Assembly (NCBI GenBank): GCA_005801425.1
Contig: SYDY01000027.1
Coordinates: 8,444 to 72,443 of the forward strand
Length of the DNA stretch: 64,000 nucleotides
Origin: Bdellovibrionales bacterium
Lineage (GTDB): Bacteria > Myxococcota > XYA12-FULL-58-9 > SYDY01
Direction: 5' to 3'
Below the pieces are notes generated by a model. It did not search any database and was not told where the DNA came from. It worked only from the letters and a program-made list of their open reading frames with translations. Positions 2 through 32,813 of this stretch are shown piece by piece (the stretch's first letter is position 1; every line of letters starts with the position of its first letter). The position numbers and the translations under genes were made by a program.

Positions 2-838
2 GCTGATACATCGCGTTTGCAGCAGGTCATGCGCGATGAGGCTCCGAGCATTGTGTTGCATGCGGCTGCACACAAGCATGTTCCGTTGATGGAAGCACAT
101 CCTGGCGAAGCGGTGAAAAACAATCTTTTGGGAACTCACAAATTGCTTTCGTGTTGTGAAGCGATGGGTGTTGAACGGTTTGTTTTGGTGTCCACCGATA
201 AAGCGGTGAATCCATCATCGGTGATGGGTGCAACGAAACGTGGTGCCGAACTTGTGATGCAAGCATTTGCAGGCCGAAGCCATATGAATGTATGCGCTGT
301 GCGTTTTGGCAATGTATTGGGTTCTGCCGGAAGTGTCGTTCCCATTTTCCAAGAACAAATTAAACGCGGTGGACCTGTGACCATCACCGATCCTGAGATG
401 ACACGATATTTCATGACAATCCCCGAAGCGTCACAGTTGATTTTACAAGCAGGTGTGCTGGGCTCGGGCGGCGAAATTTTTATTCTCGATATGGGTGAAC
501 CGGTTCGTATTATGGATCTCGCACGTGATCTCATCGAATTGTCGGGTTTTGTACTTGGGCGCGATATCGACATCAAATTTACGGGCCTACGGCCTGGCGA
601 AAAATTATTTGAAGAGCTTGCTCTTGATCATGAAGATCTTCATGCAACATCGCATCTTAAAATCATGATGGCGCGAAAAACGAAAATCAACGCCGATTTG
701 ATAGATGTTTCATTGGCTGATCTGGCATTTGCGGCATCCACGGGCGATCACGATGAAATTCGTCAAGCACTTGCTCGACTGGTGCCTGAATGCACATGGA
801 GCCGCGCTCGCGCGCGACATGTGATGCCTGCGGCGTAA
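2..838 (+). CDS. Polysaccharide biosynthesis protein, CapD/PglF/WbpM-type UDP-sugar 4,6-dehydratase (C-terminal part; 5' end lies outside the window)
   Basis: ORF 17..838 in a frame open from base 2. Motifs [19 protein letters not shown] and [11 protein letters not shown](A)GSV(V)P are typical of the Polysacc_synt_2 family. Confidence 0.8.
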
Positions 839-880: not shown

Positions 881-1804
881 ATGGCTGGTATTGTCACACC
901 TGATATGTCAATCATAGAATTTCATTCAGCGCAGAGCTTGAGACCAACGGTATCACTGCGTGTTGCAGAGCCAATGTTCATTGCACAGTCATTGATGGAT
1001 ATATATCTGCCCTCGGAACTGCAGATAAATCTCAAAAAAATACCCCTTGTGTCTCCTGCAGATCATGGGTCGTTGTGCTGGAAATTTAAGATCAAATGGG
1101 CTGATTGTACCGATGAAAATAACGTGATTGTTTTTTTTAGCGTTAAAAAAGATGAGCAAGGAAATACAGACGCGATCAATTTTAATATCAATTTTTCACA
1201 TGGAAAATATGACCGTGGCAGTGTCATACGCGACATAGAATTTAATCATGACAATGATCTGGTTCGATTTTCTCGCGAACTTACGCTGATCCCTGAGGGC
1301 CAGCGTGGTCATGGATATGGAACGCGCCTCTTGCAGGGTGAAATACAATGGGTGCGAGTTTATAGTAAGAATTTGGATAGTTCTATTACGGGTTTCTCGA
1401 TGCGCATGCCCTCCGTTGATAAACCACCGGGGCAGTTTGCCTGGCGCAAATCATTTGATTTTAAAAATGAATCGTCAAAATGTAATATTCAACGCCATTA
1501 CCATAGATGGCTCACAGAAAATATGCCGGTATGGGAAGACGCTACCAAGTTGTCGGAAGCTTCACTTCGTGAAGCTTTGCCCAAAACGATAGAGCATCCA
1601 TGGACTTTGGATGGATGTGTATTACCCTGTCCATTCGATCAGTATGTGAGCACGTTGGCCCAAGGCGAGGGCTATCCTGGTAGGGACATTTTTGCATGGG
1701 CATTTTGGAATGCTGACGCTCGAAATGCTACTTCTGCTGAATACTTGGATTTGACGTGGTATGGCATTCGCTATGTCAATCAACCGTGGCATGGCCCATT
1801 ATAA
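881..1804 (+). CDS. Uncharacterised protein, paralog 1 of 4, with a central GNAT-like R-x-x-G-x-G motif
   Basis: 307-aa ORF. Shares motifs QRGHGYG...E(I/M)xWV, PPGQF(A/V)WRK, EHPWxLDxCxLP, EGYPGxxxxAWxFWNxD and GIRYVNxxWxGP with the next three ORFs. Begins MAGI like its paralogs. Local GC is ~43%. Confidence 0.6.
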   Translation: MAGIVTPDMSIIEFHSAQSLRPTVSLRVAEPMFIAQSLMDIYLPSELQINLKKIPLVSPADHGSLCWKFKIKWADCTDENNVIVFFSVKKDEQGNTDAINFNINFSHGKYDRGSVIRDIEFNHDNDLVRFSRELTLIPEGQRGHGYGTRLLQGEIQWVRVYSKNLDSSITGFSMRMPSVDKPPGQFAWRKSFDFKNESSKCNIQRHYHRWLTENMPVWEDATKLSEASLREALPKTIEHPWTLDGCVLPCPFDQYVSTLAQGEGYPGRDIFAWAFWNADARNATSAEYLDLTWYGIRYVNQPWHGPL

Positions 1805-1822
1805 AATAATGAGAGAAAGATC

Positions 1823-2710
1823 ATGGCCTCAATACAATTGAATGATTCGCACCATACGAAGCAAATAACGCTACTGCATTATGAAGAACCGGCTTCTTTG
1901 GCCCAGTCTTTGCTCGATATTTATTTGCCTCCGGGAAGCCGTGTGCAGCTTCCACATTTTGGAAGTGAAGGTGAAGAGCTGGATGGTCCAGCTCTTCATA
2001 TGTGGAATGAAAAATTCCAATGGCCGGGGGACAAGGAAAAAACGCGGGTTGATGTTAGCTTGCAAAGCGTCGAGACTGGATCGGCGCGATACCTGATTGT
2101 TGGGATCCAAGCCACGTCGCTTGATGGCGGTCTTTTTGACATTGTTCGGCATCTCGAATGCCGCTTGGATGGTTCACTTGATTTTCGTCGTGAAAGAACA
2201 CTTCTCCCGGAGAGCTTACGTGGCAATGGCTATGGTACGGGATTGATTGAACGGGAAATGACCTGGGTGAGGGAGCGGAGCAGGTATCCAGAAAGTACCA
2301 TTTCTATTCTGGCAACGCGTTTAGGAAATCCACCCGGACAATTTGTGTGGAGAAAATTTTTTGACTTTGCAAACGAGGATACCCAATCGTTTATTTCTGG
2401 AAAATACAGTGCTTGGGTCGACAGCAATGTTGCGAAATGGGCCTATGCAGCCAAGGTACCTGAAGCCGACTTACGCGAAATTCTACCTGCGACCATGGAG
2501 CATCCTTGGTCTTTGGATCAATGTGAGCTTCCACCCCTCTTGATGTCGCATTTCAAAAAGAAGGCAGAAAAGGAAGGCTATCGTGGCAATGCACTTGTTG
2601 CCTGGTATTTTTGGAATAGCGATGGCCTTTCAGGAGGTCATACGGATAGCAAGGGACTGGGCTGGGAAGGGATCCGGGTTGTGAACAAATCATGGCATGG
2701 TCCTCAATAG
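1823..2710 (+). CDS. Uncharacterised protein, paralog 2 of 4 (GNAT-like motif)
   Basis: 295-aa ORF with the same motif set ([46 protein letters not shown]). A GAGAGAAAG purine-rich stretch precedes the ATG. Confidence 0.6.
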   Translation: MASIQLNDSHHTKQITLLHYEEPASLAQSLLDIYLPPGSRVQLPHFGSEGEELDGPALHMWNEKFQWPGDKEKTRVDVSLQSVETGSARYLIVGIQATSLDGGLFDIVRHLECRLDGSLDFRRERTLLPESLRGNGYGTGLIEREMTWVRERSRYPESTISILATRLGNPPGQFVWRKFFDFANEDTQSFISGKYSAWVDSNVAKWAYAAKVPEADLREILPATMEHPWSLDQCELPPLLMSHFKKKAEKEGYRGNALVAWYFWNSDGLSGGHTDSKGLGWEGIRVVNKSWHGPQ

Positions 2711-2725
2711 AATGGATAAAATAAT

Positions 2726-3577
2726 ATGGCAGCAATCGATTTTCATCCTCAACAGGTGCTCAACATCGCGTATGGGCAAAACGTAAATCCAGTGACATTG
2801 GTCCACTCGTTGGTTGATCTCTATGTTCCGGCAGGGCAATCAGTGGCATTGCGTGCCGTGTCGCACCCGCCCCATATCTTGGGCGCCTGGAAATTTAGGA
2901 TGCAATGGCCCCATGACGATGTTGCATATGAATATAGCGCGGACTTGATACAAAATGATTCAACGTTTAATTTTTTTATTGAGGGACACGATTTTGATGT
3001 GATTAGAAAGATTGATTTTTGTTCGGGGGGTGAAATCAATTTTTACCGTGATATTACAGAATATCCTTCCGATCAGCGTGGCCATGGTTATGGTCGCGAA
3101 GCATTGTATCGAGAAATAGACTGGGTGCGTTCGCGAAGTACGCATCCAGACAGTCGGATATCAACCCATGCTGGCAATATAGGTACAAAACCATCGGGAC
3201 AATTTGTTTGGCGCACGATGTTTGAATTTGATGTTAAATCGTGTGCGAGAATTTCTGAGATATACACCGCTTGGAAAGAAACAAATATTAAAGCTTGGGC
3301 TATTGCAACAGGATGCAGTGAAAGCATTTTGCGACAATCTTTGCCTGCGACCATGGTGCAACCATGGTCGTTGGATGATTGTGTCCTGCCCGAAAATTTT
3401 TCGAAATATTTAAAGACACATGCCCAATCGGAAGGCTACCCGGGAAGAGCAACACTTGCTTGGGCGTTTTGGAATAGCGACTTACGCGATCAAGATCCCA
3501 AAGATAAAAAACTATTGAGCTGGGATGGTTGTCGCTATGTGAATCGACCGTGGAACGGTCCTGAATCGAAAGCATGA
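2726..3577 (+). CDS. Uncharacterised protein, paralog 3 of 4 (GNAT-like motif)
   Basis: 283-aa ORF with the same motif set ([43 protein letters not shown]). Confidence 0.6.
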   Translation: MAAIDFHPQQVLNIAYGQNVNPVTLVHSLVDLYVPAGQSVALRAVSHPPHILGAWKFRMQWPHDDVAYEYSADLIQNDSTFNFFIEGHDFDVIRKIDFCSGGEINFYRDITEYPSDQRGHGYGREALYREIDWVRSRSTHPDSRISTHAGNIGTKPSGQFVWRTMFEFDVKSCARISEIYTAWKETNIKAWAIATGCSESILRQSLPATMVQPWSLDDCVLPENFSKYLKTHAQSEGYPGRATLAWAFWNSDLRDQDPKDKKLLSWDGCRYVNRPWNGPESKA

Positions 3578-3623
3578 TTCTCCACTTTTTGTTATAGAAT
3601 GATGGAATATAAAGGATACATTG

Positions 3624-4484
3624 ATGGCAGCGATAGAATTACACCGGCGAAATCCTGTGAATATTATCGCATTGGCAGAATCGAAACCGACAGATTTTGC
3701 ACAATCGTTGCTAGACCTTTATTTGCCTGCAAGAACCCGTGTGGATCTGAGTGCATACGAATCGAAAGAAGCATTAAAGCAAACTCATCTGGGATGTTGG
3801 AATTTTACGTTTCAATGGCGCGATGGATCTCCAAGGCAAATGGGCAGTGTGGAAATCAAGTCGCTTGGAAACAAGATTACTTTTTCTGTTGAAGCCGAGG
3901 GCTTTGACATTCTCCGAGATATTTATCAGCTCTCAGATGGCTCAGTGGAGTTCCATATTGAGATGACGCAATATCCTCAAGAGGAGCGTGGTCAAGGCTA
4001 TGGCCAACAATTGCGGGTCAATGAAATACAATGGGTTTGTTTGCAGAGTAAACATCCCGATAGTGCCATTTACAGCCAATCAGTACGTTTTAAGTATGCA
4101 GAAGCGCCTCCAGGTCAATTTGTATGGCGAAAATCACTGGAGTTTGATGGAGGTGCGAAGCATAGAATCTCGGGATTTTATAAAAAGTGGGTGACAAGAA
4201 ATATGGAACGATGGTCGTATGCGACCCATATTTCAGAGCGTAAAATTCGCAGCATTTTACCCAAAGAAATGCAGCATCCATGGTCACTGGATGGATGTGT
4301 TCTTCCTGGTTCCTTGGGTAGGCATTTAAAGAAGATGGCAGAATTGGAAGGCTATCCTGGCAAAGACGTTCTTGCATGGGCGTTTTGGAACAGTGATGTT
4401 CGCAAAGGTGATCCACTTTGTGGCAAGGTGCTGGGTTGGTCAGGCATTCGATATGTCAATCGACCGTGGAACGGTCCTATTTAG
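3624..4484 (+). CDS. Uncharacterised protein, paralog 4 of 4 (GNAT-like motif)
   Basis: ORF 3621..4484. The ATG at 3624 is preceded by AAAGGA 7 nt upstream. Motifs [32 protein letters not shown] and [12 protein letters not shown]. Begins MAAIELH like paralog 3 (MAAIDFH). Confidence 0.6.
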
Positions 4485-5995
4485 TACCGATATTGATCTG
4501 ACTTGAACGGTCCTGTTGGACTGATACCAATGTAATCGGCTTGGGCTGTGGTCAGTGTTGTGAGATGTGCACCAAAGCGATCGAGATGCAAACGTGCAAC
4601 CATTTCATCCAAGGCTTTTGGCAGTGTGGTGACTGTCTTACCATACTTTTCAGCATTGAGATGCAGATCAAGCTGGGCCAACACCTGATTGGTAAATGAC
4701 GTGGACATCACAAAACTTGGATGTCCTGTGGCACAACCAAGATTCACCAAACGACCTTCAGCCAATAGGATCACGCTGTGGCCGTCAGGAAAGCGCCATT
4801 CGTGCACTTGGGGTTTGATTTCAATTTTTTCAACTTCTTTTCGGCGTCGTAGTGCTTCAAGGCCAGCCATATCGATTTCGTTATCGAAATGTCCGATGTT
4901 GCATACAATCGCACCGTGGCGCATGCGTGCCATGTGATTGGCGGAAATGATATCAAAGTTGCCTGTGGCGGTGACGTAGATATCGAAATTTTGTTCAATG
5001 GCATCGTCGATGGTGATGACATCAAGACCTTGCATGCATGCTTGCAAGGCACAAATAGGGTCGATTTCCGCAATGGCGACACGCGCTGCTTGACCGCGCA
5101 AGGATTGCACGCAGCCTTTGCCCACATCACCGAAGCCTGCGACCAAAATGCGCTTGCCTGCGAGCATGACGTCGGTTGCACGCATGATGGCATCAACCAA
5201 TGAATGCCGGCAGCCATACAAATTATCGAATTTGCTCTTGGTCACCGAGTCGTTGACGTTGATGGCAGGAAAGAGCAACGTTTTGGCTTTTTGACGCTCA
5301 TACAAACGCAACACACCGGTGGTGGTTTCTTCGGACACACCACGAATGCTTTGAGCGTAGGGTTTCCAATAGCCTGGTGCAAGGGATTGCATGTCGCGAA
5401 GCAGTGTAAGGATGATGCCTTCTTCTTCGGAGCTTGCGCCATCGACATTAGGAACGCGTCCATCACGTTCGTGCTCAAAGCCTTGGTGGATCAACAAGGT
5501 GGCATCGCCACCATCGTCTACAAGCAACGTGGGCGATTGATTGCCAGGAAAACGAAGTGCCTGCAAAGTGCACCACCAATACTCGGCAAGTGTTTCACCT
5601 TTCCAAGCAAACACCGCGACACCTTTGGGATTCGTTGCTGTTCCCGTAGGGCCTGCAACCACGGCGGCGGCGGCGTGATCTTGGGTTGAGAAAATATTGC
5701 ATGAGCACCAGCGGACTTCTGCACCCAAATCCACAAGCGTTTCAATTAAAACCGCAGTTTGAATGGTCATGTGCAAAGAACCCATGATGCGTGCGCCACG
5801 CAGGGGATTTTTGCCTTTGTATTGTGCACGCAAAGCCATAAGGCCGGGCATCTCTTCTTCGGCAAGCTCAATTTCCTTGCGACCAAAACGAACGGCTTCA
5901 GGGGTCATGGTCGCAACGCGATACGGTGCATCTTCCATGAGAGATTCTTGGGTATCGAGAAATGTAAATTCTTGGACTTTTTTGGCTGCTAACAT
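4481..5995 (-). CDS. ahcY: Adenosylhomocysteinase (S-adenosyl-L-homocysteine hydrolase)
   Basis: ORF 4481..6133. The internal Met ([10 protein letters not shown]...) aligns with the AhcY N-terminus. An NAD-binding GFGDVGKG motif is present and homology runs along the full length. The upstream 46 codons are probably not translated. Confidence 0.9.
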
Positions 5996-15485: not shown

Positions 15486-15491
15486 TGCGTG

Positions 15492-16817
15492 ATGCTCGAT
15501 GCCAATGAGATCAGGCAATGGCTTGATTTCAACGTCGGATCTTTTCGGTTATCGCCTGTGTGGGTGCTCGTCTATTGGCCTATTCTTGTTGGCATCGCTG
15601 CTGCGTTTGCGTTGCGTAAAATCAAAAAAAATGAAGTGATTCGGCGTTACGGCATTCTTCTTGTGTTGCCATTGCTTATCAATATCGTGTTGCTGTTCAC
15701 GGGATGGTTTTTTCACGAGCGTATGGGACAACGCATCGATCATGCCTTGGTTCAGCATGCTGTGATTGCACCTGTGTCATGGATTTTTAATACTTTGCTT
15801 CAGATCCCTGTGATCAGAGATCAGCCTCTCCATATCGGTGTTGATTCCTTTTCTGGCTACATCGCGCCAAGTTGCGCAGGAACCCAAGGATTGTTTATTT
15901 TTACGATGCTTGCTGGCGCATGGTATTTTGTTCTTCGTCCGACGACTTTTCGGCATCGATTGATTTATTTGGTGCTTATGTGCGTTGGTCTTTGTTTGGG
16001 TTTTGTCGGCAATTGGCTGCGTCTTGTTGCGTTGCTTTATGTTGGGGCACGTGTTGATCGCGATCTGGCCCTCGCAGGATTTCATGACGCTGCAGGTGGG
16101 ATCATTGTGCTGTTGAATTTTGCATTGTTTGCGTGGGTCACGCATCGTGCATTGAAGGGTGATGATGGCAAAGCATGGTTTGCGGGCAATCCTGTGGTGC
16201 CCTATGTAATGCCTTGGATGGTGTGGATGGCATTGGGGATGCTTTCTGCGCTGGTCACGGTGCAATGGGATTGGTCGTATCCGTTGCGTGCTGTGATTGT
16301 ATTTATCATCCTAGGGGTGCTGGCTGCGCCTTTTCCTCAGACAATGATAAGGGCGGTTCGCGAACCGCCCCTACAGTCTGTTCTTGCAGGTCTATTCATC
16401 GCAGCTGTATGGATTATTTGGGGCCATTACGTGCTCGACCATGACTTTGCAGGTCGCATGCCAACTTCACTACGTTTTTATCACATGTGGATCGTCGGTC
16501 GCATTTTAGGAACCGTACTTCTGATTCCAGTGATTGAAGAACTCGCTTTTCGTGGATTTCTTGCGCGCGCTTTACAAAAGCCCATGTTTCAAGATCTCAC
16601 GCCATCGGATCTTCGTTGGCCGGCCATGCTTATTTCATCGGTGATTTTTGGTGTTTTTCACGACGCGCTTGCGGTCCCAGGCGTGGGTGCCGGATTTATA
16701 TTTGCGTTGCTTTATCGCAAGAGTGGGACGCTTGCATCCCCGATCATTGCGCATGCTGTTGCAAATCTTGGTGTCGCTTTGTACGCGCTAACCACAGGGC
16801 AGTGGCAGCATCTTTAA
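15492..16817 (+). CDS. Exosortase fused to a CPBP (CAAX protease/Abi) intramembrane metalloprotease domain (exosortase E/protease-like)
   Basis: N-terminal polytopic domain with the exosortase Cys motif (IAPSCAGTQG), GNWLRLV (Asn/Arg) and a GFHDAAGG His motif. C-terminal CPBP motifs EELAFRGF, FGVFH and HAVAN. The ORF's GTG at 15489 is an alternative start. Confidence 0.75.
   Translation: MLDANEIRQWLDFNVGSFRLSPVWVLVYWPILVGIAAAFALRKIKKNEVIRRYGILLVLPLLINIVLLFTGWFFHERMGQRIDHALVQHAVIAPVSWIFNTLLQIPVIRDQPLHIGVDSFSGYIAPSCAGTQGLFIFTMLAGAWYFVLRPTTFRHRLIYLVLMCVGLCLGFVGNWLRLVALLYVGARVDRDLALAGFHDAAGGIIVLLNFALFAWVTHRALKGDDGKAWFAGNPVVPYVMPWMVWMALGMLSALVTVQWDWSYPLRAVIVFIILGVLAAPFPQTMIRAVREPPLQSVLAGLFIAAVWIIWGHYVLDHDFAGRMPTSLRFYHMWIVGRILGTVLLIPVIEELAFRGFLARALQKPMFQDLTPSDLRWPAMLISSVIFGVFHDALAVPGVGAGFIFALLYRKSGTLASPIIAHAVANLGVALYALTTGQWQHL
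16351..16374. repeat. Single REP-like unit (GGGCGGTTCGCGAACCGCCCCTAC) inserted in-frame within the exosortase-CPBP coding sequence
   Basis: Exact match to the repeat family unit. It translates as (R)AVREPPLQ(S) at the junction between the exosortase and CPBP domains. Confidence 0.8.
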
Positions 16818-19704: not shown

Positions 19705-20649
19705 TTAGCACTGCTCAGAAACCCGGTTTTTACCTGCCAATTTACTTTTTCGCAAAGCAATATCGGCATGCGCGAGAAGGTCGGTGATAGAATGTGTTTC
19801 AGCTGGAACTGGGCACACGCCCAAGCTGATGGTCTGTTGCATGGTGTGCTCTTTGATCTTGATGGGGCGTTCAGCAACGGCCTGTCGAACACGCTCAGCA
19901 AATCGAATGGCTTCATCAGAATGGTCACTGGGCAAAAGGATCAGAAATTCGTCGCCACCAATGCGTCCCACGTGGTCCATCGATCGTGCCGCGCCTCGAA
20001 TACGATGCGATATTTCCTTAAGAAACAGATCGCCGATATCATGGCCGAAGGTATCGTTGATCTTTTTGAAATTATCACAGTCCACAATAACGGCATGCAA
20101 GGGCTGACTGTATCGCGAAGCTCGCTCGAGATCGAGAAGCAAAATATGCTCAAGTCCTCGCCGGTTGAGTATCTCGGTGAGTGGGTCTAAAAATGCCAGG
20201 TGTTCGAGTTTTTCGTTGGCCTTTTCCAGCTGTGATTGAACGCGAAATCTTTCAATCGCATAGCGGATCGAACGGAGCAGTAGATCTCCAGGAATATTCC
20301 CTTTGATGATATAATCCTGAACGCCTTTATGCAAAGCATCCAGGGCGACGGATTCTTCATTGAGACTGGTAAGAATGACGACAGGGATCCGAATAAGTCC
20401 TGATGATTTCCACTCATCGAGCAACGAAAATGCATTGCCATCTGGAAGCTGAAAGTCCAAGAGCACACAATCGAAGGTGTGCCTTTGAAGTGCATCGAGC
20501 GCAGAATAGGTATCACTTACATGCTCAACGTCCACGAGCCGGGAATTTTCCGTTGCATGGAGTGCGCGCATAACGCTCATGCGATCGACTTCATCATCCT
20601 CGATATAGAGGAGTTTGATTCGTTCAGTGGGCCACGTGCAGCTTGTCAT
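19705..20649 (-). CDS. Response regulator receiver-GGDEF diguanylate cyclase
   Basis: REC domain (LLYIEDDEVD...LTSL) followed by GGDEF (RIGGDEFLIL). The ATG overlaps the stop of the upstream receiver gene (TGATG). Confidence 0.85.
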   Translation of the reverse strand: MTSCTWPTERIKLLYIEDDEVDRMSVMRALHATENSRLVDVEHVSDTYSALDALQRHTFDCVLLDFQLPDGNAFSLLDEWKSSGLIRIPVVILTSLNEESVALDALHKGVQDYIIKGNIPGDLLLRSIRYAIERFRVQSQLEKANEKLEHLAFLDPLTEILNRRGLEHILLLDLERASRYSQPLHAVIVDCDNFKKINDTFGHDIGDLFLKEISHRIRGAARSMDHVGRIGGDEFLILLPSDHSDEAIRFAERVRQAVAERPIKIKEHTMQQTISLGVCPVPAETHSITDLLAHADIALRKSKLAGKNRVSEQC

Positions 20650-21071
20650 CAGGGGATCTCCACAACCATCCAATAGGCATCAAGCATTTTGACGAGTCTT
20701 ATAAAGTCGAGGCCAACATTCGATTTGACGATGTAGCCGGCAATACATTTGCGGTACGCTGCGAGCTTATCTTCCTCAGCAGATGATGTTGTAAGTACAA
20801 AAATAGTAGCTCGGCTGTGTTCTGGATCATTGCGGATCTCAGTAAGAAATTCCACACCATTCATGCGTGGCATATTCAGATCAAGAAGAATAATGTAGGG
20901 TTTGGGAACCGCAGGGACGCCTTGGCCACGCAGCATTTCAAGTGCCTCGATGCCATCGTGGGCAACAAGAAGTGGATTTCCTATTTTGCTTTCACGGAAA
21001 GCGCGTTTGATCGCCATGATGTCAACATCATCGTCGTCAATGAGAAGAATATGAACCGGTTGTGTTGTCAT
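20649..21071 (-). CDS. Single-domain CheY-like response regulator receiver
   Basis: 140 aa with the phospho-acceptor context ILLIDDDDVD...LLDLNMP and the conserved Thr/Lys (VLTTS...K). No output domain. Confidence 0.85.
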   Translation of the reverse strand: MTTQPVHILLIDDDDVDIMAIKRAFRESKIGNPLLVAHDGIEALEMLRGQGVPAVPKPYIILLDLNMPRMNGVEFLTEIRNDPEHSRATIFVLTTSSAEEDKLAAYRKCIAGYIVKSNVGLDFIRLVKMLDAYWMVVEIP

Positions 21072-21080
21072 GATACACCT

Positions 21081-22523
21081 TTATTTTTTACCCGTTTTAA
21101 CCCTAGGCATGTTTTTGGGCCAAGTGAAGGAAAATGTTGAACCTCGATCCTTGGATTCAAGTGTGATGGTACCACCAGCCTGCTTTACGAGTTTTTTTAC
21201 GAGGGATAAACCAATGCCACTGCCTTCGACAGAATCGCGAGGCTTAAGTGTTTGAAACATTTGAAATATTTTATCGTGAAATTTGCTAGGGATCCCAGGG
21301 CCATCATCAGCGACGATGAAGTTGAAAAATGCTGTATTTTTTGCATCTTGGGCCGAGATTGTAATGCACCCATTGGTGCGATCATGGTGTTTGATGGCAT
21401 TTCCTATGAGGTTCATGAACACGCGTTTCAGTGACAATGGGGTCGTTGTTAAAATGGGCATGGGGTGCGTGATATTAATTGTAAAACCAGCGGGGATGTT
21501 TAATAGGTCGATGACCTCTTTGATGAGGGCTTTCGTATCGACCAACTCGACATTTTCTAAATCCTTTCCAGCCCGTGCATAGTCTAAAATATCCGTGAGA
21601 AGATGATCCATTCTTTTAACGCGCCCACGCAGGAGCTTCATGTGTTCTTGGCGTTCTCCAACAAGAACGTCTTTAAGATCCTCAATGAGCCATTGCGAAA
21701 GCGAGTCAATGGCACGCAGGGGTGCACGGAGATCATGGGAAGCGGCGTAGGCGAATTGCTGAAGTTCTGAGTTGACGTGTTCTAGCTCACCGTTGATTCG
21801 TGTCAGTGTGTTTTGGAACTCTTTTTGCTCTGTGATGTCGATGCATGAACCGATGAAACCTATCATGGTGCCATCTTCTTGAAAGCGTGGCACACCTTGG
21901 TCGTAAATCCATCGGTATTCGCCATCGGCGCGGCGAAGACGATACTCCATGACAAAAGATTGTCCTTCTACAAAGTGTTCCATATAGGTGTGCATACAAC
22001 GTTGGAAATCTTCAAAGTGCACACCTTCGACCCAACCGACGCCAAGTTCCTGCTCAATCGTTCTTCCTGTGAAGTGCAGCCATCCTTCATTGAAAAAATA
22101 GCATTCGGAATCGACTCCTGCCATCCAGATCATGACAGGCGCGTAATCGGCCATGACCCGAAAGCGTGTTTCGAGTTCTCGAATTTGTTGACCTGTGTGT
22201 GCCTGTTCGGAGATGTGGCGAACAAAGGTGACGGTACCGCGTTGACTGCGGACCATGCGTCCTTCGTACCAGCTTGAGGTATTGGGCGTGGGGAGTTCGT
22301 ATTCGAATGTCTCCACACCGCCTTCTAGAAGCACACGTGCGCTTCGATCCAGGATGAGCTTACTTACGTCTAGGGGAAATACTTCACGTATATGTTTACC
22401 ACGCGTCCATTTTGGCCATTTTTCCATGGGTTTGGGGGGATTGTGAAACGAAAGACATACACCTTTAGGATCAAGTTCGAAGGCCATGTCGGGAAGAAGA
22501 TCTAAAAGTGCAGGGTCGCTCAT
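21081..22523 (-). CDS. Cytoplasmic PAS-domain sensor histidine kinase
   Basis: 480 aa with no TM segments. PAS/PAC region, then HisKA (ASHDLRAPLRAI) and HATPase_c (GSGIGLSLVKKLV). The start ATG overlaps the stop of the monooxygenase beta-subunit gene (ATGA). Confidence 0.85.
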   Translation of the reverse strand: MSDPALLDLLPDMAFELDPKGVCLSFHNPPKPMEKWPKWTRGKHIREVFPLDVSKLILDRSARVLLEGGVETFEYELPTPNTSSWYEGRMVRSQRGTVTFVRHISEQAHTGQQIRELETRFRVMADYAPVMIWMAGVDSECYFFNEGWLHFTGRTIEQELGVGWVEGVHFEDFQRCMHTYMEHFVEGQSFVMEYRLRRADGEYRWIYDQGVPRFQEDGTMIGFIGSCIDITEQKEFQNTLTRINGELEHVNSELQQFAYAASHDLRAPLRAIDSLSQWLIEDLKDVLVGERQEHMKLLRGRVKRMDHLLTDILDYARAGKDLENVELVDTKALIKEVIDLLNIPAGFTINITHPMPILTTTPLSLKRVFMNLIGNAIKHHDRTNGCITISAQDAKNTAFFNFIVADDGPGIPSKFHDKIFQMFQTLKPRDSVEGSGIGLSLVKKLVKQAGGTITLESKDRGSTFSFTWPKNMPRVKTGKK

Positions 22524-23488
22524 GCTGAGATCCCTTCAAGACCGGCTTCACGCCAGAGTTTGTTTTGTAGTTGACGTACCGACGTACGTACGGATGCTCC
22601 TTTCGTTTCAAAAAGAGAAAGAAAAGGTGCAATCGCAGCGTCACAGATCGGCACCCATTTTTCGATCCAGCTCTGCACGAACATGGCATTTTTAGGCGAT
22701 TCGGTGATGCAAAATGTGACGAATGCTTGCATCCATTCGCGATGCCAGCGTGTATCCTCCTCAAGAGAAGCTAGGACTTTTGTGAGGATCTCGTCACCTG
22801 AGCGTTCAGCGAGACATGCCAATTGGGTGAGAAATAGGGCATCGAATGCGGGTTTTAGAACGAGGTTGAGTGCGGTGATTGTTTCACCCCACGCATATGT
22901 GACGAGAAGTTTTTCGATAGCCATCCGCATGGGTTGCCACATGGGATCTTCTTGCCAAAGGGCTTTTCCTGATTGAGCGAACTTGGGATGCGTGATCTGT
23001 ATTTGACGGAGACGATAGGCAAAGCGTTGGGTACGTCGCATTTCGTCGGCCGCTTGGAGTGCACAGGTGACAACCAAGCGACCACTTGGCGCGATGTGCC
23101 CCACGTATGCTGCAATCATTTGCAAGCCGTGGGTTGGATAAAGAATGGGACCCAAGATCCCACTCAGCGTTGCCAGCCACTGGGGTGTTAGGCGTTGATC
23201 GTATCCTGTCTCGTCGACGGATCGCAGAAGGCCATCGACGTAGATCTCCTTCTCATTCTGAAGCATCGTATATTTCGTATACGTGGTTTCACGCGGATCT
23301 CGGAATTGCTCCCAATCGGTTACTTGAAGCGGACAGTTTTTCTGTTGTGTGAGCAACCATTCGCCAGACGGGGTATGAACTTCAAAGCCTCGATTGGTGT
23401 AATAAAGAAGTTTTGATGTGCTGATATCATAATCCGACGGCTTTTTTTTCAAACCTTCAAGATGCCACCACGTACGTTGTGCTGTCAT
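22520..23488 (-). CDS. Soluble diiron monooxygenase hydroxylase beta subunit (TmoE/toluene-4-monooxygenase-like)
   Basis: ORF 22520..23506. The ATG at 23488 overlaps the effector gene stop (TAATG). Length ~322 aa and N-terminus RTWWHLEGLKKKPSDYDI resemble TmoE. Confidence 0.8.
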   Translation of the reverse strand: MTAQRTWWHLEGLKKKPSDYDISTSKLLYYTNRGFEVHTPSGEWLLTQQKNCPLQVTDWEQFRDPRETTYTKYTMLQNEKEIYVDGLLRSVDETGYDQRLTPQWLATLSGILGPILYPTHGLQMIAAYVGHIAPSGRLVVTCALQAADEMRRTQRFAYRLRQIQITHPKFAQSGKALWQEDPMWQPMRMAIEKLLVTYAWGETITALNLVLKPAFDALFLTQLACLAERSGDEILTKVLASLEEDTRWHREWMQAFVTFCITESPKNAMFVQSWIEKWVPICDAAIAPFLSLFETKGASVRTSVRQLQNKLWREAGLEGISA

Positions 23489-23784
23489 TATTTCCCAAAG
23501 GCCCAAATGGCCTCCTCCTCATTGATGGTCAACTTGCCTTTAAACGATGGCATGCAAAGTTCGAGATCACCTGGCAATAGGAATGGACGTCCGAGTGCTT
23601 GTTCGACAGCCGATCGTTTGAGTGTGCATTGCATAGGAACGGACACGCGGAGATAGGAACCTCGATCAAGGACAACGACACCCTTATTCAACTTTCGGAT
23701 TGCTGTGACGATGGCATTTGCAACATCACCGACTTCGAGAACCGGACCTACGCTATTGCTCTGCTCGCTAGGTATTGGCTTCAT
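23488..23784 (-). CDS. Monooxygenase effector/coupling protein (MmoB/DmpM/TmoD family)
   Basis: ORF 23488..23838. The internal start MKPIPSEQSNSVGPVLEVGD aligns with the TmoD N-terminus. ~98 aa. Confidence 0.7.
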   Translation of the reverse strand: MKPIPSEQSNSVGPVLEVGDVANAIVTAIRKLNKGVVVLDRGSYLRVSVPMQCTLKRSAVEQALGRPFLLPGDLELCMPSFKGKLTINEEEAIWAFGK

Positions 23785-24112
23785 GGTGTGTTCCGGGTGG
23801 GTTTGGTGGAATATCAACCAGTATATTGCCATCGACAATTTTTACGTCGAAAGGACGCAAGCAAACCGACCGAGGATTGATCCCTTGGCCTGTGCGCGCA
23901 TCGTAGGAGTAGAAATGTGCACAACATGTGAGTACATCATCTTGTAGCAAGCCTTCGCTGATGGCCACTCCCAAATGGGCACAACGATCTTCGTAGGCAT
24001 AGATGGTTTCATCGATGCGGACGAGTAGGACTTTCGTACCTTCAATTTCACATCCGATCATATCACCTTGCCAGAGTTCATCGACGGGCATTATTTTTTG
24101 GAATGCCATCAA
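23768..24112 (-). CDS. Rieske [2Fe-2S] ferredoxin component (TmoC-like)
   Basis: 114 aa with CxH...(17)...CxxH ligands (RCAHLG ... TCCAHF). Confidence 0.75.
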   Translation of the reverse strand: MMAFQKIMPVDELWQGDMIGCEIEGTKVLLVRIDETIYAYEDRCAHLGVAISEGLLQDDVLTCCAHFYSYDARTGQGINPRSVCLRPFDVKIVDGNILVDIPPNPPGTHHEANT

Positions 24113-24351
24113 ATATTCTCCGCAATCACATCGATTCGATCGAGTGCAGAAAGGCCGACTTCAGCGATGGTGAGTTCAGGATCTAGAAGTTCTCCATGAC
24201 GGTAGACTTGTGCATATGTTTTGGGTTTGACGCGGACCGAGGCGGCTTCTTGTAGACTTGCTGCGAGATCTTTGATCCTGTCTGTGTCATGCACGAGAAC
24301 GACCAGCCCGATGGTATCGCCTTTTAAGAATCCAAAGAGAGGTACAAGCAT
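24109..24351 (-). CDS. Monooxygenase gamma subunit (TmoB-like)
   Basis: ORF 24109..24474. The Met at 24351 (MLVPLFGFLKGDT...) starts 5 nt after the alpha-subunit stop. ~80 aa, the size of TmoB. Confidence 0.65.
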   Translation of the reverse strand: MLVPLFGFLKGDTIGLVVLVHDTDRIKDLAASLQEAASVRVKPKTYAQVYRHGELLDPELTIAEVGLSALDRIDVIAENI

Positions 24352-24355
24352 GGCA

Positions 24356-25843
24356 TTAACCTTTCGATAATTGCATCCAAGGGTATCTGCCTCCCGCAAC
24401 ATCTTTGCCCCATATGCTCGGCGTGAGATCGAAGTATCGTAGGAGTTCAAACAGATTGCCTGGCGCTTCTCCACTGAGGATCCGCATCACAACATCTTTG
24501 TGATGCTCATAACGTTCTGGCTCGCTTTCGAAGATCCAACGGCATGGTTTCGAACAGAAGACATACTTGCGCGCGCCGCGCGTGATCACCTCCGCGGAGT
24601 TACGTTCCGGCGAACCACCACACAAGACGAGCTGACAGAGGTTGCAAAAAGTAACGGGTGTTGCACCATGGGTGTACCACTCGACGCCAGGGCCAGATTT
24701 ACGCCAGCGGTTTGTGATTTGCTCCCAGATGGGATCGAAAAGCGGCCAGGTCTTTGCATATTTTTCCTGAAGCCAGGTTCTTTCTTCTGGACCTGGCAGT
24801 GCGAAGTTGAACCAGGTTGTTGCACGGTATGTGTAAGCACTTGCGTAAACCATGTGATGGTAGGTGTCGATGGCATCCAGGAACTGTTGCCAGTACCATG
24901 GCAATGCGAGCCCCATTTCTTCAAGTGAGCGCTTGAACTGATCGAGCACCCATTCTTGCATGAATTCTTTAAATGATTGTGTCCGATGTTTGAGCGGCGT
25001 CAGGTAATCCATGCTGAAGCCGGTGATGACGGCAAAGAAAAGCCAGTTTCGCCAGAACCATTTGTCGACCAGATATTGGGCACGCTTGGGATCGTGCGCG
25101 ATTATTTTTTGGAGGACGGGATGCCCTATTTGGGCGTGACGTGCTTCATCGGTTTGGATGCTTTTGACCATTTTCTCGAACATGCGATCGCCGGCAGCAT
25201 GTGCCATGGTCGATAGACCAATGAACTGGAGATTGGTGAAGCCGGTTTCAAAAACAAAATTGGTGCCGACAGCGAACTCCATGGGATCTGATGTGATAAG
25301 GAGTTCATCGACGAGATGACGGCCTGCGATGGCAATCCAGTTGTTGGTGTGAAAAAATTTGTGGGTCCAGTCAAATTGAGGATCCCATCGGACCAATTCG
25401 TGCATGATGAGCAGTGGGATCTGGGCGTGACGAAGTTCATCCAATGCGCCGAGGAGTGCTGTTGTGCGCCATGCGCTATCGCGCCCAAAGCGGGCCGCGC
25501 GAAGATTCCCCACAACTGCTGCAAATTCAGCCAATGCAAGTGTTGCCGCGTGGAGCTTTAATCCGTTGATCCAAGAAGGGTCATGTTTCTGAAAGTCCTC
25601 CACCTTGCCGACGGCATCACGCACCGCATGGACGGAAGCTTCTTTGATGGACTGATTTTTTACGTATTCTGTGTAGGATGTACGATAGGGTTCATCCCAA
25701 TCCTTCCATGTTTCGGCTGTGAGCCATGGGGAACCGCTGATTTCTTCGGGAAAGACCTCTCGTTCCTCAACATAAGAGAAGTCCCAATCGAGCTTTCGTG
25801 CTAGATCGAGCCAGTCGTCGCGCTTTAGCATGGCGCTCCCCAT
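24356..25843 (-). CDS. Soluble diiron monooxygenase hydroxylase alpha subunit (toluene-4-monooxygenase TmoA-like, group 2 SDIMO)
   Basis: 495 aa with diiron ligand motifs E...DELRH and E...DEARH (LGALDELRHAQ; SIQTDEARHAQ). Global similarity to the TmoA/TouA layout. Confidence 0.85.
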   Translation of the reverse strand: MGSAMLKRDDWLDLARKLDWDFSYVEEREVFPEEISGSPWLTAETWKDWDEPYRTSYTEYVKNQSIKEASVHAVRDAVGKVEDFQKHDPSWINGLKLHAATLALAEFAAVVGNLRAARFGRDSAWRTTALLGALDELRHAQIPLLIMHELVRWDPQFDWTHKFFHTNNWIAIAGRHLVDELLITSDPMEFAVGTNFVFETGFTNLQFIGLSTMAHAAGDRMFEKMVKSIQTDEARHAQIGHPVLQKIIAHDPKRAQYLVDKWFWRNWLFFAVITGFSMDYLTPLKHRTQSFKEFMQEWVLDQFKRSLEEMGLALPWYWQQFLDAIDTYHHMVYASAYTYRATTWFNFALPGPEERTWLQEKYAKTWPLFDPIWEQITNRWRKSGPGVEWYTHGATPVTFCNLCQLVLCGGSPERNSAEVITRGARKYVFCSKPCRWIFESEPERYEHHKDVVMRILSGEAPGNLFELLRYFDLTPSIWGKDVAGGRYPWMQLSKG

Positions 25844-29996: not shown

Positions 29997-32813
29997 TTAT
30001 TGTCTGCCTGTTTTCATACGAATGATGCCCGCCGCGGGATCAACGACCGGGAGTGCAAACTTGCGCAGGTGTGTTTGAGGTATTTCTGGAAACACAGAGG
30101 CCACAAGCTGTTTGATGTGTGCGGCACTTGTGGCCAATGCACGAGGCATGCATGAAAGCTTCCTAAAATCACTGCCTAAAGCCTGTTCAGGGCTTATTTG
30201 ATGCACCGCAGCAGTCACAGTGCCTGCTGCCAGCGCACGCATCCATAAGGCTGCGCCAACAGTTCTTGCCATGTTCTCGGGGTCTTTCAAGGCTTCGATG
30301 TCCGCTTTTAGCTTGATGAGACCACGACCCTCTACAGGAAGTGCATTGACCGCATCGAGTACAGAATTGACGATCATAGAGATATCACCATCACCCAAAA
30401 CCAGTGCATCCAAGGCTTCTGGTGTTAGCAATTGAGGTGATGTTGTTTTGATAGGGATGTTTTCCCCTATGCGTTCTTCATTGAGAACATCGGATGTTGT
30501 AAAATATTGGTGCACGTTGGTTAAAGCAACTTGAATGACGGCGATTCTTTCGATCAAGTTCCTGGCTGATACAAGTTGGGCTTGATGAACGCCATCCGGC
30601 AAAGGCGCCGTCGTGTTGTAAATAGCGCGTTGTAGGGATTTTACCGGACTTTGGGAGACGAGCAAATCGTCGAACATGGACGCATGGGTGTCGACCAATA
30701 AAGTGACGCATCCTTTTAATTGATCAGCCATCTGTAAAAATTTCTTGGTGATGGCGTACGCTGCTTTTCCATCGGCATTTGACGCTTCAAGGAATGCAGT
30801 CGGATCGTCGGTGCGAAGCGCTGCAAGCAAGCGTTCGCGATAATTATGTTTGATGGCCCATGGGATTTCGCGAATGTATTTTTCCATGGCAGGTGCCATG
30901 GATGGGGGAAAGCATGGATTGCGGATGATGGCGTGCGCAAGTACTTGAAGTGTATCCTCACCAGGAAAAAATCCATAAGGAAGAACTGCTTCGCATGCAT
31001 AACGAAGTGCTTTTTGTTGTTCTGAAGTCAATGGATTTTTAAGTGACTTCATGATCAATGCGGCTTGATTGATCACGTTTTCCAGAAGGGTCTCTCGTTC
31101 GAGATCCCAAAAAGCCCGTTGGGCGTTAATGATCACATGCGCGTCGTAGACGAGTACTTCAGGAAGTGCATCAATCTCACAATTTTTTCGTTCTACGATC
31201 CAGTCAACGATGCCCGCTTCGATAAGTTTTTTAGAACCATGGGCTTCGTGAAGCTCCGAAGCGCTTGTGCCATAGAGATTCGGATTGGATGTGATGGGTT
31301 TGAGCCATTCAAATGTACGTCTAGGATCGAGGCGCTTTATGGCCTTGCGCTCACGCTTAATCGTTATTTGTTGGACATCAAGCCGCTTTGTTTGTGATGT
31401 TACTGCTTCTCCTGCGAAGATAAGCGCTTCGTTCTGATGGCGCGTACGAATGCGATCGACTTCCACACGAATGCTCATGTTTTTGAGATGAACAGCAAGA
31501 AGACGCATTCTTTTGTCAAGGATACGCATGCCCACACAAATAGCGGCTTGAGGTGATAACTGTTTCCACTCTTCTCGATGGGTTCGTTTTTTCCATTCAA
31601 AATGCACCACATCTTCGGAGGATGCCACGCGATTGAGGAGTGTCATGGCAGCTTCAAGCATGGCAATCACGCGCTCAGGTTGAACGATATCATCTTCGTC
31701 ATGAAGCGATGCAATGATCAGTGTTTGTTCTACTTCAGCTTTCCATTTTTTTGCGCCCTCGACATCTCGGCTACTTTCGATGGGGCACAGGCGGAGCAAT
31801 TGTTCTTTGCAACTGGTTAACATGTCCAGTGTTCGCGTGAAATCCAATGACCCCCGATTCAGCATATCGGTTGCGAAATGTTGCCAATACGTATCCGCCG
31901 CCTGTTGTCCTTCGGGGGTTAGCCATGCGGGTGTGACTTCAAAATTAGGGTGGGCTGACACTTGATGTTCAACCCAATGGGCATTGTGTTCGGCCCAGGG
32001 TGGAAGTTGTTCGTACAGGGCATTTTCGAGCAAAACGATGGATTGTGGCCCTTCAGGAGAAGCGAGAAGCTGGCGTCGTATTTTTTCTTGAAGTTGAATC
32101 AAATTTTCGCGGCGTGGCGTTGCATCTTCAGAAAGGTCGTGCGTCAGACCTGACAGCATGCGTGTGACATCGATATATGTTTTGATCAATGCAGGGATGT
32201 GAGGTTCTTTATTTTCTTGAATGATTTTGGCTTGCAGCGGTTCTTGTTTGAAACACGTGAGATATGTATCCCAGCGCGCTTGCCAAGCTTGAGCAAGTAT
32301 GTCGATTTCTGCTTGGGGAAGATTGTGGGCAAGTGCGTCTTGAAAATTTTCAAACGCCTCGAGCATGACACATGCAGAATGTACGGAAGGGTTCTTCAAT
32401 AATTCTGAAGGTCTTTCGGAAGCATGGGATGGAAAGAAACGGCCCGTTCCCACGAGGTAGGCCATATGCAATTCTTGGACTGAAGGATTAAAATTAGGAA
32501 CGACCTGTTGTGCTTTGTGAATGTAGCGTCGACTATGCGCTTGCGTGAGTGGATCTTGCAATTCAAGCGTAAGATCCGAAAATCGTGTTGCGCTTGCTTT
32601 GGCCAGGGAAGGTGCTTGATAGGTAATGTCAGGGGTTAATGTACTTACCGATTGGCTTCGTTTAGGTTTTTTATGGGGATGTTCGTCGTTGGGGTTGAAG
32701 GAATCGTCTTTTGTTTTAAAGTTTCCAACAATCTTCATCCGCATTGCCCTTCTTCGATCCGCATGACGCATCAATTTGAAGTCTTGCACGTGGGCTATCT
32801 TTATCTTCGACAA
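29997..32813 (-). CDS. Large hypothetical protein (938 aa), no recognisable domain
   Basis: Long uninterrupted ORF, predicted mostly alpha-helical. Local GC (~46-48%) is lower than the flanks. No signal peptide was seen. Confidence 0.5.
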   Translation of the reverse strand: MSKIKIAHVQDFKLMRHADRRRAMRMKIVGNFKTKDDSFNPNDEHPHKKPKRSQSVSTLTPDITYQAPSLAKASATRFSDLTLELQDPLTQAHSRRYIHKAQQVVPNFNPSVQELHMAYLVGTGRFFPSHASERPSELLKNPSVHSACVMLEAFENFQDALAHNLPQAEIDILAQAWQARWDTYLTCFKQEPLQAKIIQENKEPHIPALIKTYIDVTRMLSGLTHDLSEDATPRRENLIQLQEKIRRQLLASPEGPQSIVLLENALYEQLPPWAEHNAHWVEHQVSAHPNFEVTPAWLTPEGQQAADTYWQHFATDMLNRGSLDFTRTLDMLTSCKEQLLRLCPIESSRDVEGAKKWKAEVEQTLIIASLHDEDDIVQPERVIAMLEAAMTLLNRVASSEDVVHFEWKKRTHREEWKQLSPQAAICVGMRILDKRMRLLAVHLKNMSIRVEVDRIRTRHQNEALIFAGEAVTSQTKRLDVQQITIKRERKAIKRLDPRRTFEWLKPITSNPNLYGTSASELHEAHGSKKLIEAGIVDWIVERKNCEIDALPEVLVYDAHVIINAQRAFWDLERETLLENVINQAALIMKSLKNPLTSEQQKALRYACEAVLPYGFFPGEDTLQVLAHAIIRNPCFPPSMAPAMEKYIREIPWAIKHNYRERLLAALRTDDPTAFLEASNADGKAAYAITKKFLQMADQLKGCVTLLVDTHASMFDDLLVSQSPVKSLQRAIYNTTAPLPDGVHQAQLVSARNLIERIAVIQVALTNVHQYFTTSDVLNEERIGENIPIKTTSPQLLTPEALDALVLGDGDISMIVNSVLDAVNALPVEGRGLIKLKADIEALKDPENMARTVGAALWMRALAAGTVTAAVHQISPEQALGSDFRKLSCMPRALATSAAHIKQLVASVFPEIPQTHLRKFALPVVDPAAGIIRMKTGRQ

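Follow-up and report, generated by a model that had tools for sequence, protein, structure and literature searches.

Proteins of the GNAT superfamily (CL0257; PF00583, PF13508) have an R-x-x-G-x-G/A loop, known as motif A, which follows a Pro-ending hydrophobic strand and precedes an amphipathic helix, and further on an alpha4/beta6 region with the pattern 'Y-e-k-l-G-F'. The alpha4 position often holds a catalytic Tyr, and a single-domain GNAT has a length of about 150-180 aa. In the GNAT sugar-nucleotide N-acetyltransferases WecD/RffC and PseH, GNAT-like sequence is combined with extra non-GNAT sequence, and the gene lies next to a sugar-nucleotide 4,6-dehydratase gene. The four tandem proteins described here (283-307 aa) share both of these features with WecD/RffC and PseH, and resemble GNATs in having a motif A-like loop in the same setting, a beta5-like strand, and then G-x-(F/Y)-x-W-(A)R-x-(G)F at the place of the alpha4/beta6 pattern; as a family they are statistically nearer to GNATs than to control proteins. 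Unlike GNATs, however, they fall below all curated thresholds, contain extra strands and indels in the N-terminal half, have an invariant Trp where the alpha4 Tyr often sits, and end in a further domain of about 110 aa with the motifs (E/Q)HPWSLDxCxLP, [17 protein letters not shown] and GIRYVNxPWxGP. Unlike WecD/RffC and PseH, the array lacks a partner aminotransferase gene and genes for glycan assembly in its vicinity, shows no sequence match to these enzymes outside motif A, and contains four paralogs instead of one enzyme.

The array lies in a 64,000-nucleotide stretch of contig SYDY01000027.1, the whole of which is referred to as the window. Table 1 shows the features of the locus. The four consecutive same-strand ORFs described in the earlier note concur with the public gene calls on the contig, and their position between a capsule-type dehydratase gene and ahcY was borne out, as the upstream product matched Polysacc_synt_2 (382 bits) and CoA_binding_3, and an AdoHcyase gene converges on the array from downstream. 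From the dehydratase gene to paralog 4, the intergenic gaps are 42, 18, 15 and 46 nt, and the gap between the dehydratase gene and paralog 1 has only a weak terminator-like hairpin (830-849). Because the gaps are short, one transcript is suggested, and co-transcription with the dehydratase gene, on the same strand 42 nt before paralog 1, would be possible. Paralog 4 is preceded by an AAGGA Shine-Dalgarno-like sequence and ends in TAG (4482-4484), which overlaps TAA (4481-4483), the stop codon of the convergent ahcY. No fifth copy was found when the six reading frames of the window were scanned with an HMM. A variant of paralog 4 with two amino acids changed (P0005) is present on another public contig.

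Table 1. Features of the tandem array and its flanks (positions in the window)
Feature	Position	Strand	Length	Source or remark
CapD/PglF/WbpM-type UDP-sugar 4,6-dehydratase gene, 3' part	17..838	+	639 aa (full length)	
Paralog 1 (P0001)	881..1804	+	307 aa	ORF list and public gene calls
Motif A of paralog 1, RGHGYG	1304-1321	+		
GQFAWR of paralog 1	1430-1447	+		
Trp-rich C-terminal domain of paralog 1	~1460 to 1801	+		
Paralog 2 (P0002)	1823..2710	+	295 aa	ORF list and public gene calls
Motif A of paralog 2, RGNGYG	2219-2236	+		
Paralog 3 (P0003)	2726..3577	+	283 aa	ORF list and public gene calls
Motif A of paralog 3, RGHGYG	3077-3094	+		
Paralog 4 (P0004)	3624..4484	+	286 aa from ATG 3624	Longest ORF start 3621
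Motif A of paralog 4, RGQGYG	3987-4004	+		
ahcY (S-adenosylhomocysteine hydrolase)	4481..5995	-		Convergent; downstream boundary of the array

The four copies are strongly diverged tandem paralogs, with pairwise identities of 37-43% (35-45% had been claimed) and BLASTP E-values of 1e-62 to 1e-79. Their alignment has 71 invariant columns, 11 of which are Trp, and at the DNA level repeat families are spaced by 906, 858 and 916 nt. All motifs listed in the earlier note were found, with small departures in copy 2 (EGYRG, AWYFWN and IRVVNKSW), copy 3 (HSLVDLYVP, PSGQFVWRT and VQPWSLD) and copy 4 (ERGQGYG). Each longest ORF does begin with MA(G/S/A)I, but by homology the start Met of copies 2-4 corresponds to M9 (MSII) of copy 1, so that the true start of paralog 1 may be M9 (ATG at 905). 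Of the 59 invariant columns whose amino acid has degenerate codons, 46 show at least two codons across the four copies. Since synonymous codons differ at most invariant residues, the copies are real genes under selection at the protein level. Variability is concentrated in alignment columns 61-120, and the copies differ most, indels included, in the N-terminal beta-sheet half. The four proteins, which have no hydrophobic segment and a Trp content of 3.6-3.9%, are soluble and probably cytoplasmic.

Searches of about 15 billion proteins returned only three distant relatives (P0006, P0007 and P0008). When 1.84 billion cluster representatives were searched by profile, these three and the four copies were recovered and nothing else, and k-mer-indexed searches gave self matches and P0007 only. 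P0006 is a fifth, more distant and dispersed paralog on another contig of the same genome, with a native GC content of 51.9%. P0008 originates from Lake Mendota, and two of the relatives have amidotransferase-type neighbours. The genome_contigs, metagenome_contigs and viral_contigs sets were scanned without yielding a further family member, no relative was found in plasmids, phages or viral contigs, and the 185,579 GTDB species genomes contained no homolog; one family alignment was too divergent for pattern scanning. That the architecture belongs to no named family, as the earlier note had supposed, was confirmed at significance in Pfam, NCBIfam, PADLOC, PHROGs and PDB sequences. The four paralogs had no match at E <= 1 in Pfam and NCBIfam; the four proteins, the three relatives and the family consensus gave nothing significant in Pfam, NCBIfam, PADLOC or PHROGs; and PDB sequence searches with full, core and C-terminal profiles or with single cores gave weak matches only (E >= 0.25). 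The C-terminal domain motifs had no PDB sequence match, and the full-length proteins and the family consensus matched nothing credible in Pfam. A weak PDB match of an SDGSxEF stretch was to hippocalcin, an EF-hand protein, and was dismissed as spurious. The family is real, new and very rare, and is probably lineage-restricted.

The resemblance of RG(H/N/Q)GYG to a GNAT motif held in a controlled profile test, in which the loop behaves as motif A. We compared the family core profile by hhalign with 80 annotated proteins, including six E. coli GNATs chosen beforehand as well as Rossmann and P-loop proteins that also have Gly-rich loops. MnaT, RimI, PhnO, SpeG, RffC and RimL occupied ranks 1, 2, 3, 5, 7 and 8 (Mann-Whitney p = 5e-5), while the Rossmann and P-loop controls did not score. 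Each of the six GNATs was aligned through its own motif A, and for PhnO the aligned region reached alpha4/beta6. For MnaT, hhalign gave P = 4.3e-5 and a probability of 69% over 31 columns. The ranking was reproduced with disjoint sub-profiles of the four window copies (p = 0.004) and of the three distant relatives (p = 9e-5), and the RimI ORF ranked second of 1,526 six-frame ORFs. In a PDB profile search, four of the five independent hits at E < 1.3 were GNAT acetyltransferases aligned at motif A. Sub-threshold Pfam matches were to Acetyltransf_1, Acetyltransf_7 and Acetyltransf_CG (E 0.011-0.14), and the sub-threshold match of the P0007 core extended to the end of the Acetyltransf_1 model. 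The pattern R-x-x-G-x-G/A is kept in six of the seven family members, including P0006 (RGSGIG) and P0007 (RGCGWA), while P0008 deviates (RGEALS), with A and S replacing both glycines. MnaT/phosphinothricin-acetyltransferase-type GNATs are the best-scoring subgroup, and one of their structures (PDB 1yr0) is among the top PDB hits. However, the alignment to this subgroup spans only motif A and alpha3, and no subgroup model in NCBIfam or Pfam matched; inferring an acceptor from the MnaT likeness is not justified.

The sequence similarity to GNATs is essentially limited to about 30-55 residues around motif A, and no curated GNAT HMM reached its gathering score. The best scores, 16.5 bits for Acetyltransf_7 (cut-off 27) and 15.9 bits for Acetyltransf_1 (cut-off 20.7), came from the cores of the relatives. 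The GNAT signal was visible only with hhalign and not with hmmsearch: a core HMM searched against about 2,500 ORFs from the fetched loci returned noise and missed RimI at that sensitivity. A GNAT profile derived from RimI, built on enterobacterial orthologs at least 80% identical, gave no gain over one sequence alone, with hhalign probabilities of 3-7% and an alignment confined to motif A. Both AlphaFold models were poor, with pLDDT of 48 and 52. Since no curated threshold is reached and the models are poor, the GNAT fold is only putative. The invariant Trp at alpha4 is in register in P0007 and P0008, and since it replaces the usual Tyr, activity is not assured.

It is probable that the four proteins belong to a lineage-restricted family with a GNAT-derived acyl-CoA N-acyltransferase core and an added C-terminal domain, and that they are old tandem paralogs whose acceptor specificity has diverged. 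In this proposal, which is built from sequence comparisons, the middle of the protein (residues ~60-195 in paralog 1) would derive from a GNAT acyl-CoA N-acyltransferase core, in which strand beta4 would lead into the R-G-x-G-Y-G pyrophosphate-binding loop and helix alpha3 (E-I-x-W-V-R), followed by strand beta5 (HPDSxI...) and an alpha4/beta6-like G-Q-F-V-W-R-K-x-F-D-F. This core appears to be fused to the C-terminal domain (about 110 aa), which is Trp-rich, mostly helical and specific to the family. The motif A loop is predicted to bind acetyl- or another acyl-CoA, from which the acyl group would be passed to an amine acceptor. Tandem duplication probably produced the four copies long ago in this lineage. 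Because the N-terminal half is the most variable, acceptor specificity has probably diverged between the copies, with the CoA-binding core and the C-terminal domain conserved. More tentatively, and with some doubt, the family may represent new enzymes in which an ancient GNAT CoA core, rebuilt with Trp for the catalytic Tyr, is joined to a new Trp-rich acceptor-binding domain, such that five copies in one deep-branching uncultured lineage would carry out related but distinct N-acylations beyond the substrates of known GNATs. Possible substrates would then be amino sugars from the CapD-like enzyme, or glutamine- or glutamate-like amines, the latter hinted at by the amidotransferase-type neighbours of the two relatives.

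A specific version of the GNAT-derived proposal is that the four enzymes acylate a 4-amino-4,6-dideoxy-hexose downstream of the CapD/PglF-type UDP-GlcNAc 4,6-dehydratase, like PseH and WecD/RffC, with the copies adding different acyl groups or using different sugars so that a surface glycan is diversified. The strand and spacing of the array relative to the dehydratase gene, with only the weak hairpin between them, are consistent with this, a dehydratase beside a GNAT has a precedent in the rffG-rffH-rffC-wecE order of the E. coli ECA cluster, and RffC ranked 4th to 7th of the 80 proteins against the family profile. However, the 10 kb to each side of the array contain no gene for an aminotransferase, glycosyltransferase or flippase, the neighbours being protein kinase, TilS-like, photolyase, ahcY, valS and murB genes; none of P0006, P0007 and P0008 adjoins a sugar gene, CapD adjacency included, and the NCBIfam models for PseH- and WecD-type enzymes did not match. 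The link between the array and the upstream CapD-like dehydratase is positional only, and we regard the amino-sugar role as distinctly unlikely. It is also unlikely, though the lack of a GNAT HMM at threshold and the Trp for Tyr replacement would favor it, that the central domain is instead a ligand-binding helix-grip (SRPBCC/START-like) or other fold with a convergent RGxGYG, so that the array would encode non-catalytic proteins with a role in binding, immunity or regulation. Diverged paralogs in tandem are typical of immunity genes, but PADLOC gave no match and no toxin gene is nearby. Models with pLDDT of about 50 in the central region give structural matches little weight, the SRPBCC Pfam models did not match, and the ranking in the profile test was specific to GNATs over other Gly-rich loop proteins.

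The low GC content had been read as a sign of acquisition followed by serial duplication. The dip is real, as the array has 44.9% GC against 50.0% for the window and is its lowest-GC 3.6-kb stretch (others, 47.0-53.7%), but it is modest, at 5 points instead of about 10, with flanking genes at 49-52% instead of about 55%. It is due in part to amino-acid composition, which is reflected in a low GC1 (0.50-0.57, against 0.55-0.66 in other genes), while GC3 (0.39-0.44) overlaps that of other window genes. The tetranucleotide signature of the array is mildly atypical, correlating at 0.77 with the remainder of the window where equal-sized stretches reach 0.86-0.92, although repetition of the motif-coding sequence in itself skews k-mer counts. 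Neither an integrase or transposase nor a flanking direct repeat or adjacent tRNA is present, and the plasmid, phage, viral and species-genome searches above gave no relative, so acquisition is unsupported. The presence of P0006 elsewhere in the genome with native GC argues that the family is resident in the lineage, and copies only 37-43% identical point to duplications so old that any foreign composition would be expected to have ameliorated. A recent insertion is also opposed by how closely the stop codons of paralog 4 and ahcY overlap. It is very unlikely that the array was horizontally acquired as a low-GC island, such as a cassette for an effector or for resistance, and then amplified. 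Around valS in the 80 nearest genomes, no ahcY, capD or murB neighbours were found, so these genomes offered no empty site for comparison.

Arrays of orphan paralogs are frequent in metagenomic data, and the wider significance of this one is limited pending a substrate, with no bearing on a long-standing open question. In practical terms, the family is of use for structural work and substrate screens, and it offers a test of remote-homology detection in a case that defeats both HMM libraries and AlphaFold. The array is a clean case of lineage-specific family growth by tandem duplication in a bacterium without a close sequenced relative. If the proposed GNAT origin is true, the family would be a very rare branch of the superfamily, with about seven sequences in about 15 billion proteins, set apart by its new C-terminal domain and by the unusual composition of its active site.

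Four ORFs make up the array (table), and they match the public gene calls on the identical contig (ENA ERZ27257035 k141_910289, 253 kb; Logan SRR8894381). An HMM scan of all six frames found exactly four family copies in the window. Copy 1 begins 42 nt after the capD-like gene, and the copies are separated by 18, 15, and 46 nt. Because the stop codon of paralog 4 (TAG, 4482-4484) overlaps that of the convergent ahcY (TAA, minus strand, 4481-4483), there is no intergenic room for a terminator. Paralog 1 has two candidate starts resembling the family N-terminus, MAGI at 881 and MSII at 905, and Met-9 of this copy aligns with the start Met of copies 2-4.

Features of the array, its surroundings and its distant relatives (E-values: four-copy profile, HMMER)
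Feature	Coordinates	Strand	Description	Match
Upstream capD-like gene			CapD/PglF/WbpM-type dehydratase, 639 aa	Polysacc_synt_2, 382 bits
Paralog 1	881-1804	+	307 aa ORF	
Paralog 2	1823-2710	+	295 aa ORF	
Paralog 3	2726-3577	+	283 aa ORF	
Paralog 4	3624-4484	+	286 aa ORF	
Downstream genes			ahcY, valS	
Exosortase-like gene	15489-16817		441 aa	Exosortase EpsH domain, Rce1-like (CAAX protease) domain
Monooxygenase cluster and the genes after it	19705-25843	minus	Multicomponent toluene/phenol monooxygenase	Phenol_Hydrox alpha and beta, TmoB, Rieske, MmoB
Large ORF	29997-32813		938 aa	No Pfam match at E <= 1e-5
Large ORF	36738-37961		407 aa	No Pfam match at E <= 1e-5
Large ORF	45634-48075		813 aa	No Pfam match at E <= 1e-5
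P0006	L004:10001-10780		259 aa	E 2.4e-10
Gene downstream of P0006	L004:10749-11672	same as P0006	Stand-alone class-II glutamine amidotransferase domain protein	GATase_4/GATase_6
P0007	L003:102-1817		571 aa	E 3e-5
P0008			197 aa	E 3e-4

The earlier note had described four tandem, diverged paralogs of a family without a name, and both descriptions were borne out. The four proteins are 37-43% identical over their whole length in pairwise alignments (BLASTP E-values 1e-62 to 1e-79), and the four-copy alignment has 71 invariant columns, 11 of which are Trp. All the motifs listed in that note were found in the four copies with small deviations. No model in Pfam, NCBIfam, PADLOC, or PHROGs matches the family. 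DNA repeat families in the array are spaced 906, 858, and 916 nt apart. Since 46 of the 59 invariant columns with a degenerate-codon amino acid use at least two codons across the four copies, these residues have been kept by protein-level selection; recent duplication or gene conversion does not account for them. The proteins contain 3.6-3.9% Trp and have no hydrophobic segment fit for a signal peptide or a membrane span.

When the four-copy profile was run with HMMER on 1.84 billion representatives of clusters comprising about 15 billion proteins, only three proteins besides the four copies were recovered (P0006, P0007, and P0008). Scans of plasmids, phages, viral contigs, JGI metagenome contigs, and 185,579 species genomes gave no further members. 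The three datasets that contain P0006 are those that contain the window, and its contig has a GC content equal to that of the window and a tetranucleotide correlation of 0.95 with it (at most 0.74 for 80 unrelated genomes); thus, P0006 belongs to the same organism and is a fifth paralog, dispersed from the other four. Its gene overlaps the downstream amidotransferase gene by 32 nt. P0007 lies on a 2.5-kb metagenome contig and has the family core at about residues 130-400; ~120 aa of Ser/Thr-rich N-terminal sequence precede it and ~170 aa of helical C-terminal extension follow, so the family module is also found in a larger architecture. P0008, from a Lake Mendota co-assembly (PMC11374980), is encoded ~400 nt downstream of a DUF364 and GATase/Peptidase_C26 gene. 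Among sequenced organisms, the source organism itself has no close relative: the identity of its ValRS to those of GTDB species representatives does not exceed 47%, and the best matches include Myxococcota MAGs.

The earlier suggestion that the proteins are GNAT-like did not reach curated thresholds. The best Pfam scores, 16.5 bits for Acetyltransf_7 (cut-off 27) and 15.9 for Acetyltransf_1 (cut-off 20.7), came from cores of the relatives or from family consensus sequences, and the sub-threshold matches fall on three GNAT families. Of the five independent matches with E <1.3 in a profile search of PDB, four were GNAT acetyltransferases aligned on the RGxGxG loop. Because these weak signals agree in direction, we ran a controlled test with five annotated E. 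coli K-12 regions, in which six GNATs picked beforehand (RimI, RimL, MnaT, SpeG, PhnO, and RffC/WecD) and 74 neighbouring proteins, including Rossmann and P-loop proteins with Gly-rich loops, were each scored by hhalign against the family core profile A4. Among the 80 proteins, the six GNATs took ranks 1, 2, 3, 5, 7, and 8 (p = 5e-5, one-sided Mann-Whitney test), and every one aligned at its own motif A. MnaT reached P = 4.3e-5 (probability 69%), and the PhnO alignment continued past beta5 to alpha4/beta6. The profile of the four window copies alone ranked the GNATs 1, 3, 4, 16, 22, and 24 (p = 0.004), and that of the three distant relatives alone 1, 2, 3, 4, 8, and 9 (p = 9e-5). When 1,526 six-frame ORFs were scored as a null set, the RimI ORF came second and no ORF had a P below 0.0026. 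Six of the seven family members keep motif A (R-x-x-G-x-G/A) intact. The central region thus very probably descends from the acyl-CoA-binding core of GNATs.

The GNAT superfamily is thus the closest known kind; its highest scores, confined to motif A and alpha3, belong to MnaT/PAT-type enzymes. Unlike GNATs, the family falls below all curated thresholds, has an elaborated N-terminal sheet, and adds a new Trp-rich C-terminal domain. This domain (~110 aa) had no match among PDB sequences and nothing credible in Pfam scans of the full-length proteins and the family consensus. Two AlphaFold2 models (pLDDT 48 and 52) were too low for use; pLDDT reached 70-90 in the C-terminal helices alone (copy 3, residues ~170-255). 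The Tyr of the GNAT pattern Y-e-k-l-G-F is commonly catalytic. At its place in alpha4 the family carries an invariant Trp, in the register given by P0007 and P0008 (G-A-Y-x-W-A-R-x-G-F-D-F).

Local GC had been taken as a sign of acquisition. The dip is real, with 44.9% in the island, 50.0% in the window, and 47.0-53.7% in all 560 other 3.6-kb windows; since the flanking genes have 49-52% GC, it amounts to 5 points, not roughly 10 as first described. GC1 is 0.50-0.57 in the array genes against 0.55-0.66, so amino-acid composition contributes to the dip, and GC3 (0.39-0.44) overlaps the range of other window genes. The tetranucleotide correlation of the island is mildly atypical (0.77 against 0.86-0.92 for other stretches), a deviation inflated by the fourfold-repeated motif-coding sequence. 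Mobility genes, flanking repeats, and an adjacent tRNA are all absent. Acquisition is unsupported because the duplications are old, P0006, a more distant paralog, lies elsewhere in the genome with native composition (51.9% GC), and there is no donor or mobile context.

Elsewhere in the window, after the monooxygenase cluster come genes for a PAS-HisKA sensor kinase, a response regulator, and a response-regulator-GGDEF protein. The 813-aa ORF is unusual in its GC by codon position (GC2 0.55, GC3 0.40). Several eukaryote-like domains are encoded on the contigs of the organism, including a Pkinase beside the capD-like gene and, on the P0006 contig, MORN, collagen, PHAX_RNA-bd, a weak bZIP match, and rhomboid.

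The motif matching the CoA-pyrophosphate loop is intact, and the helix after it is conserved. Conservation across the copies extends over the core and the C-terminal domain, and variability and indels cluster in alignment columns 61-120, the N-terminal sheet region. The proteins would be acyl-CoA-dependent N-acyltransferases, the paralogs may have diverged in acceptor specificity, and the array and the CapD-like gene may share a transcript. The one pointer to an amino-sugar role is the dehydratase gene that the array adjoins; no aminotransferase or glycan gene lies near the array, and P0006, P0007, and P0008 have other neighbours. MnaT/PAT enzymes acetylate glutamate analogues, and their top scores, together with the two glutamine-amide-handling neighbours of relatives, may hint at glutamine- or glutamate-like acceptors or may equally be coincidence. 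The array is a real and very rare set of paralogs, very probably GNAT-derived, that encode putative N-acyltransferases, and as such is of moderate interest as a target for structural and biochemical work.
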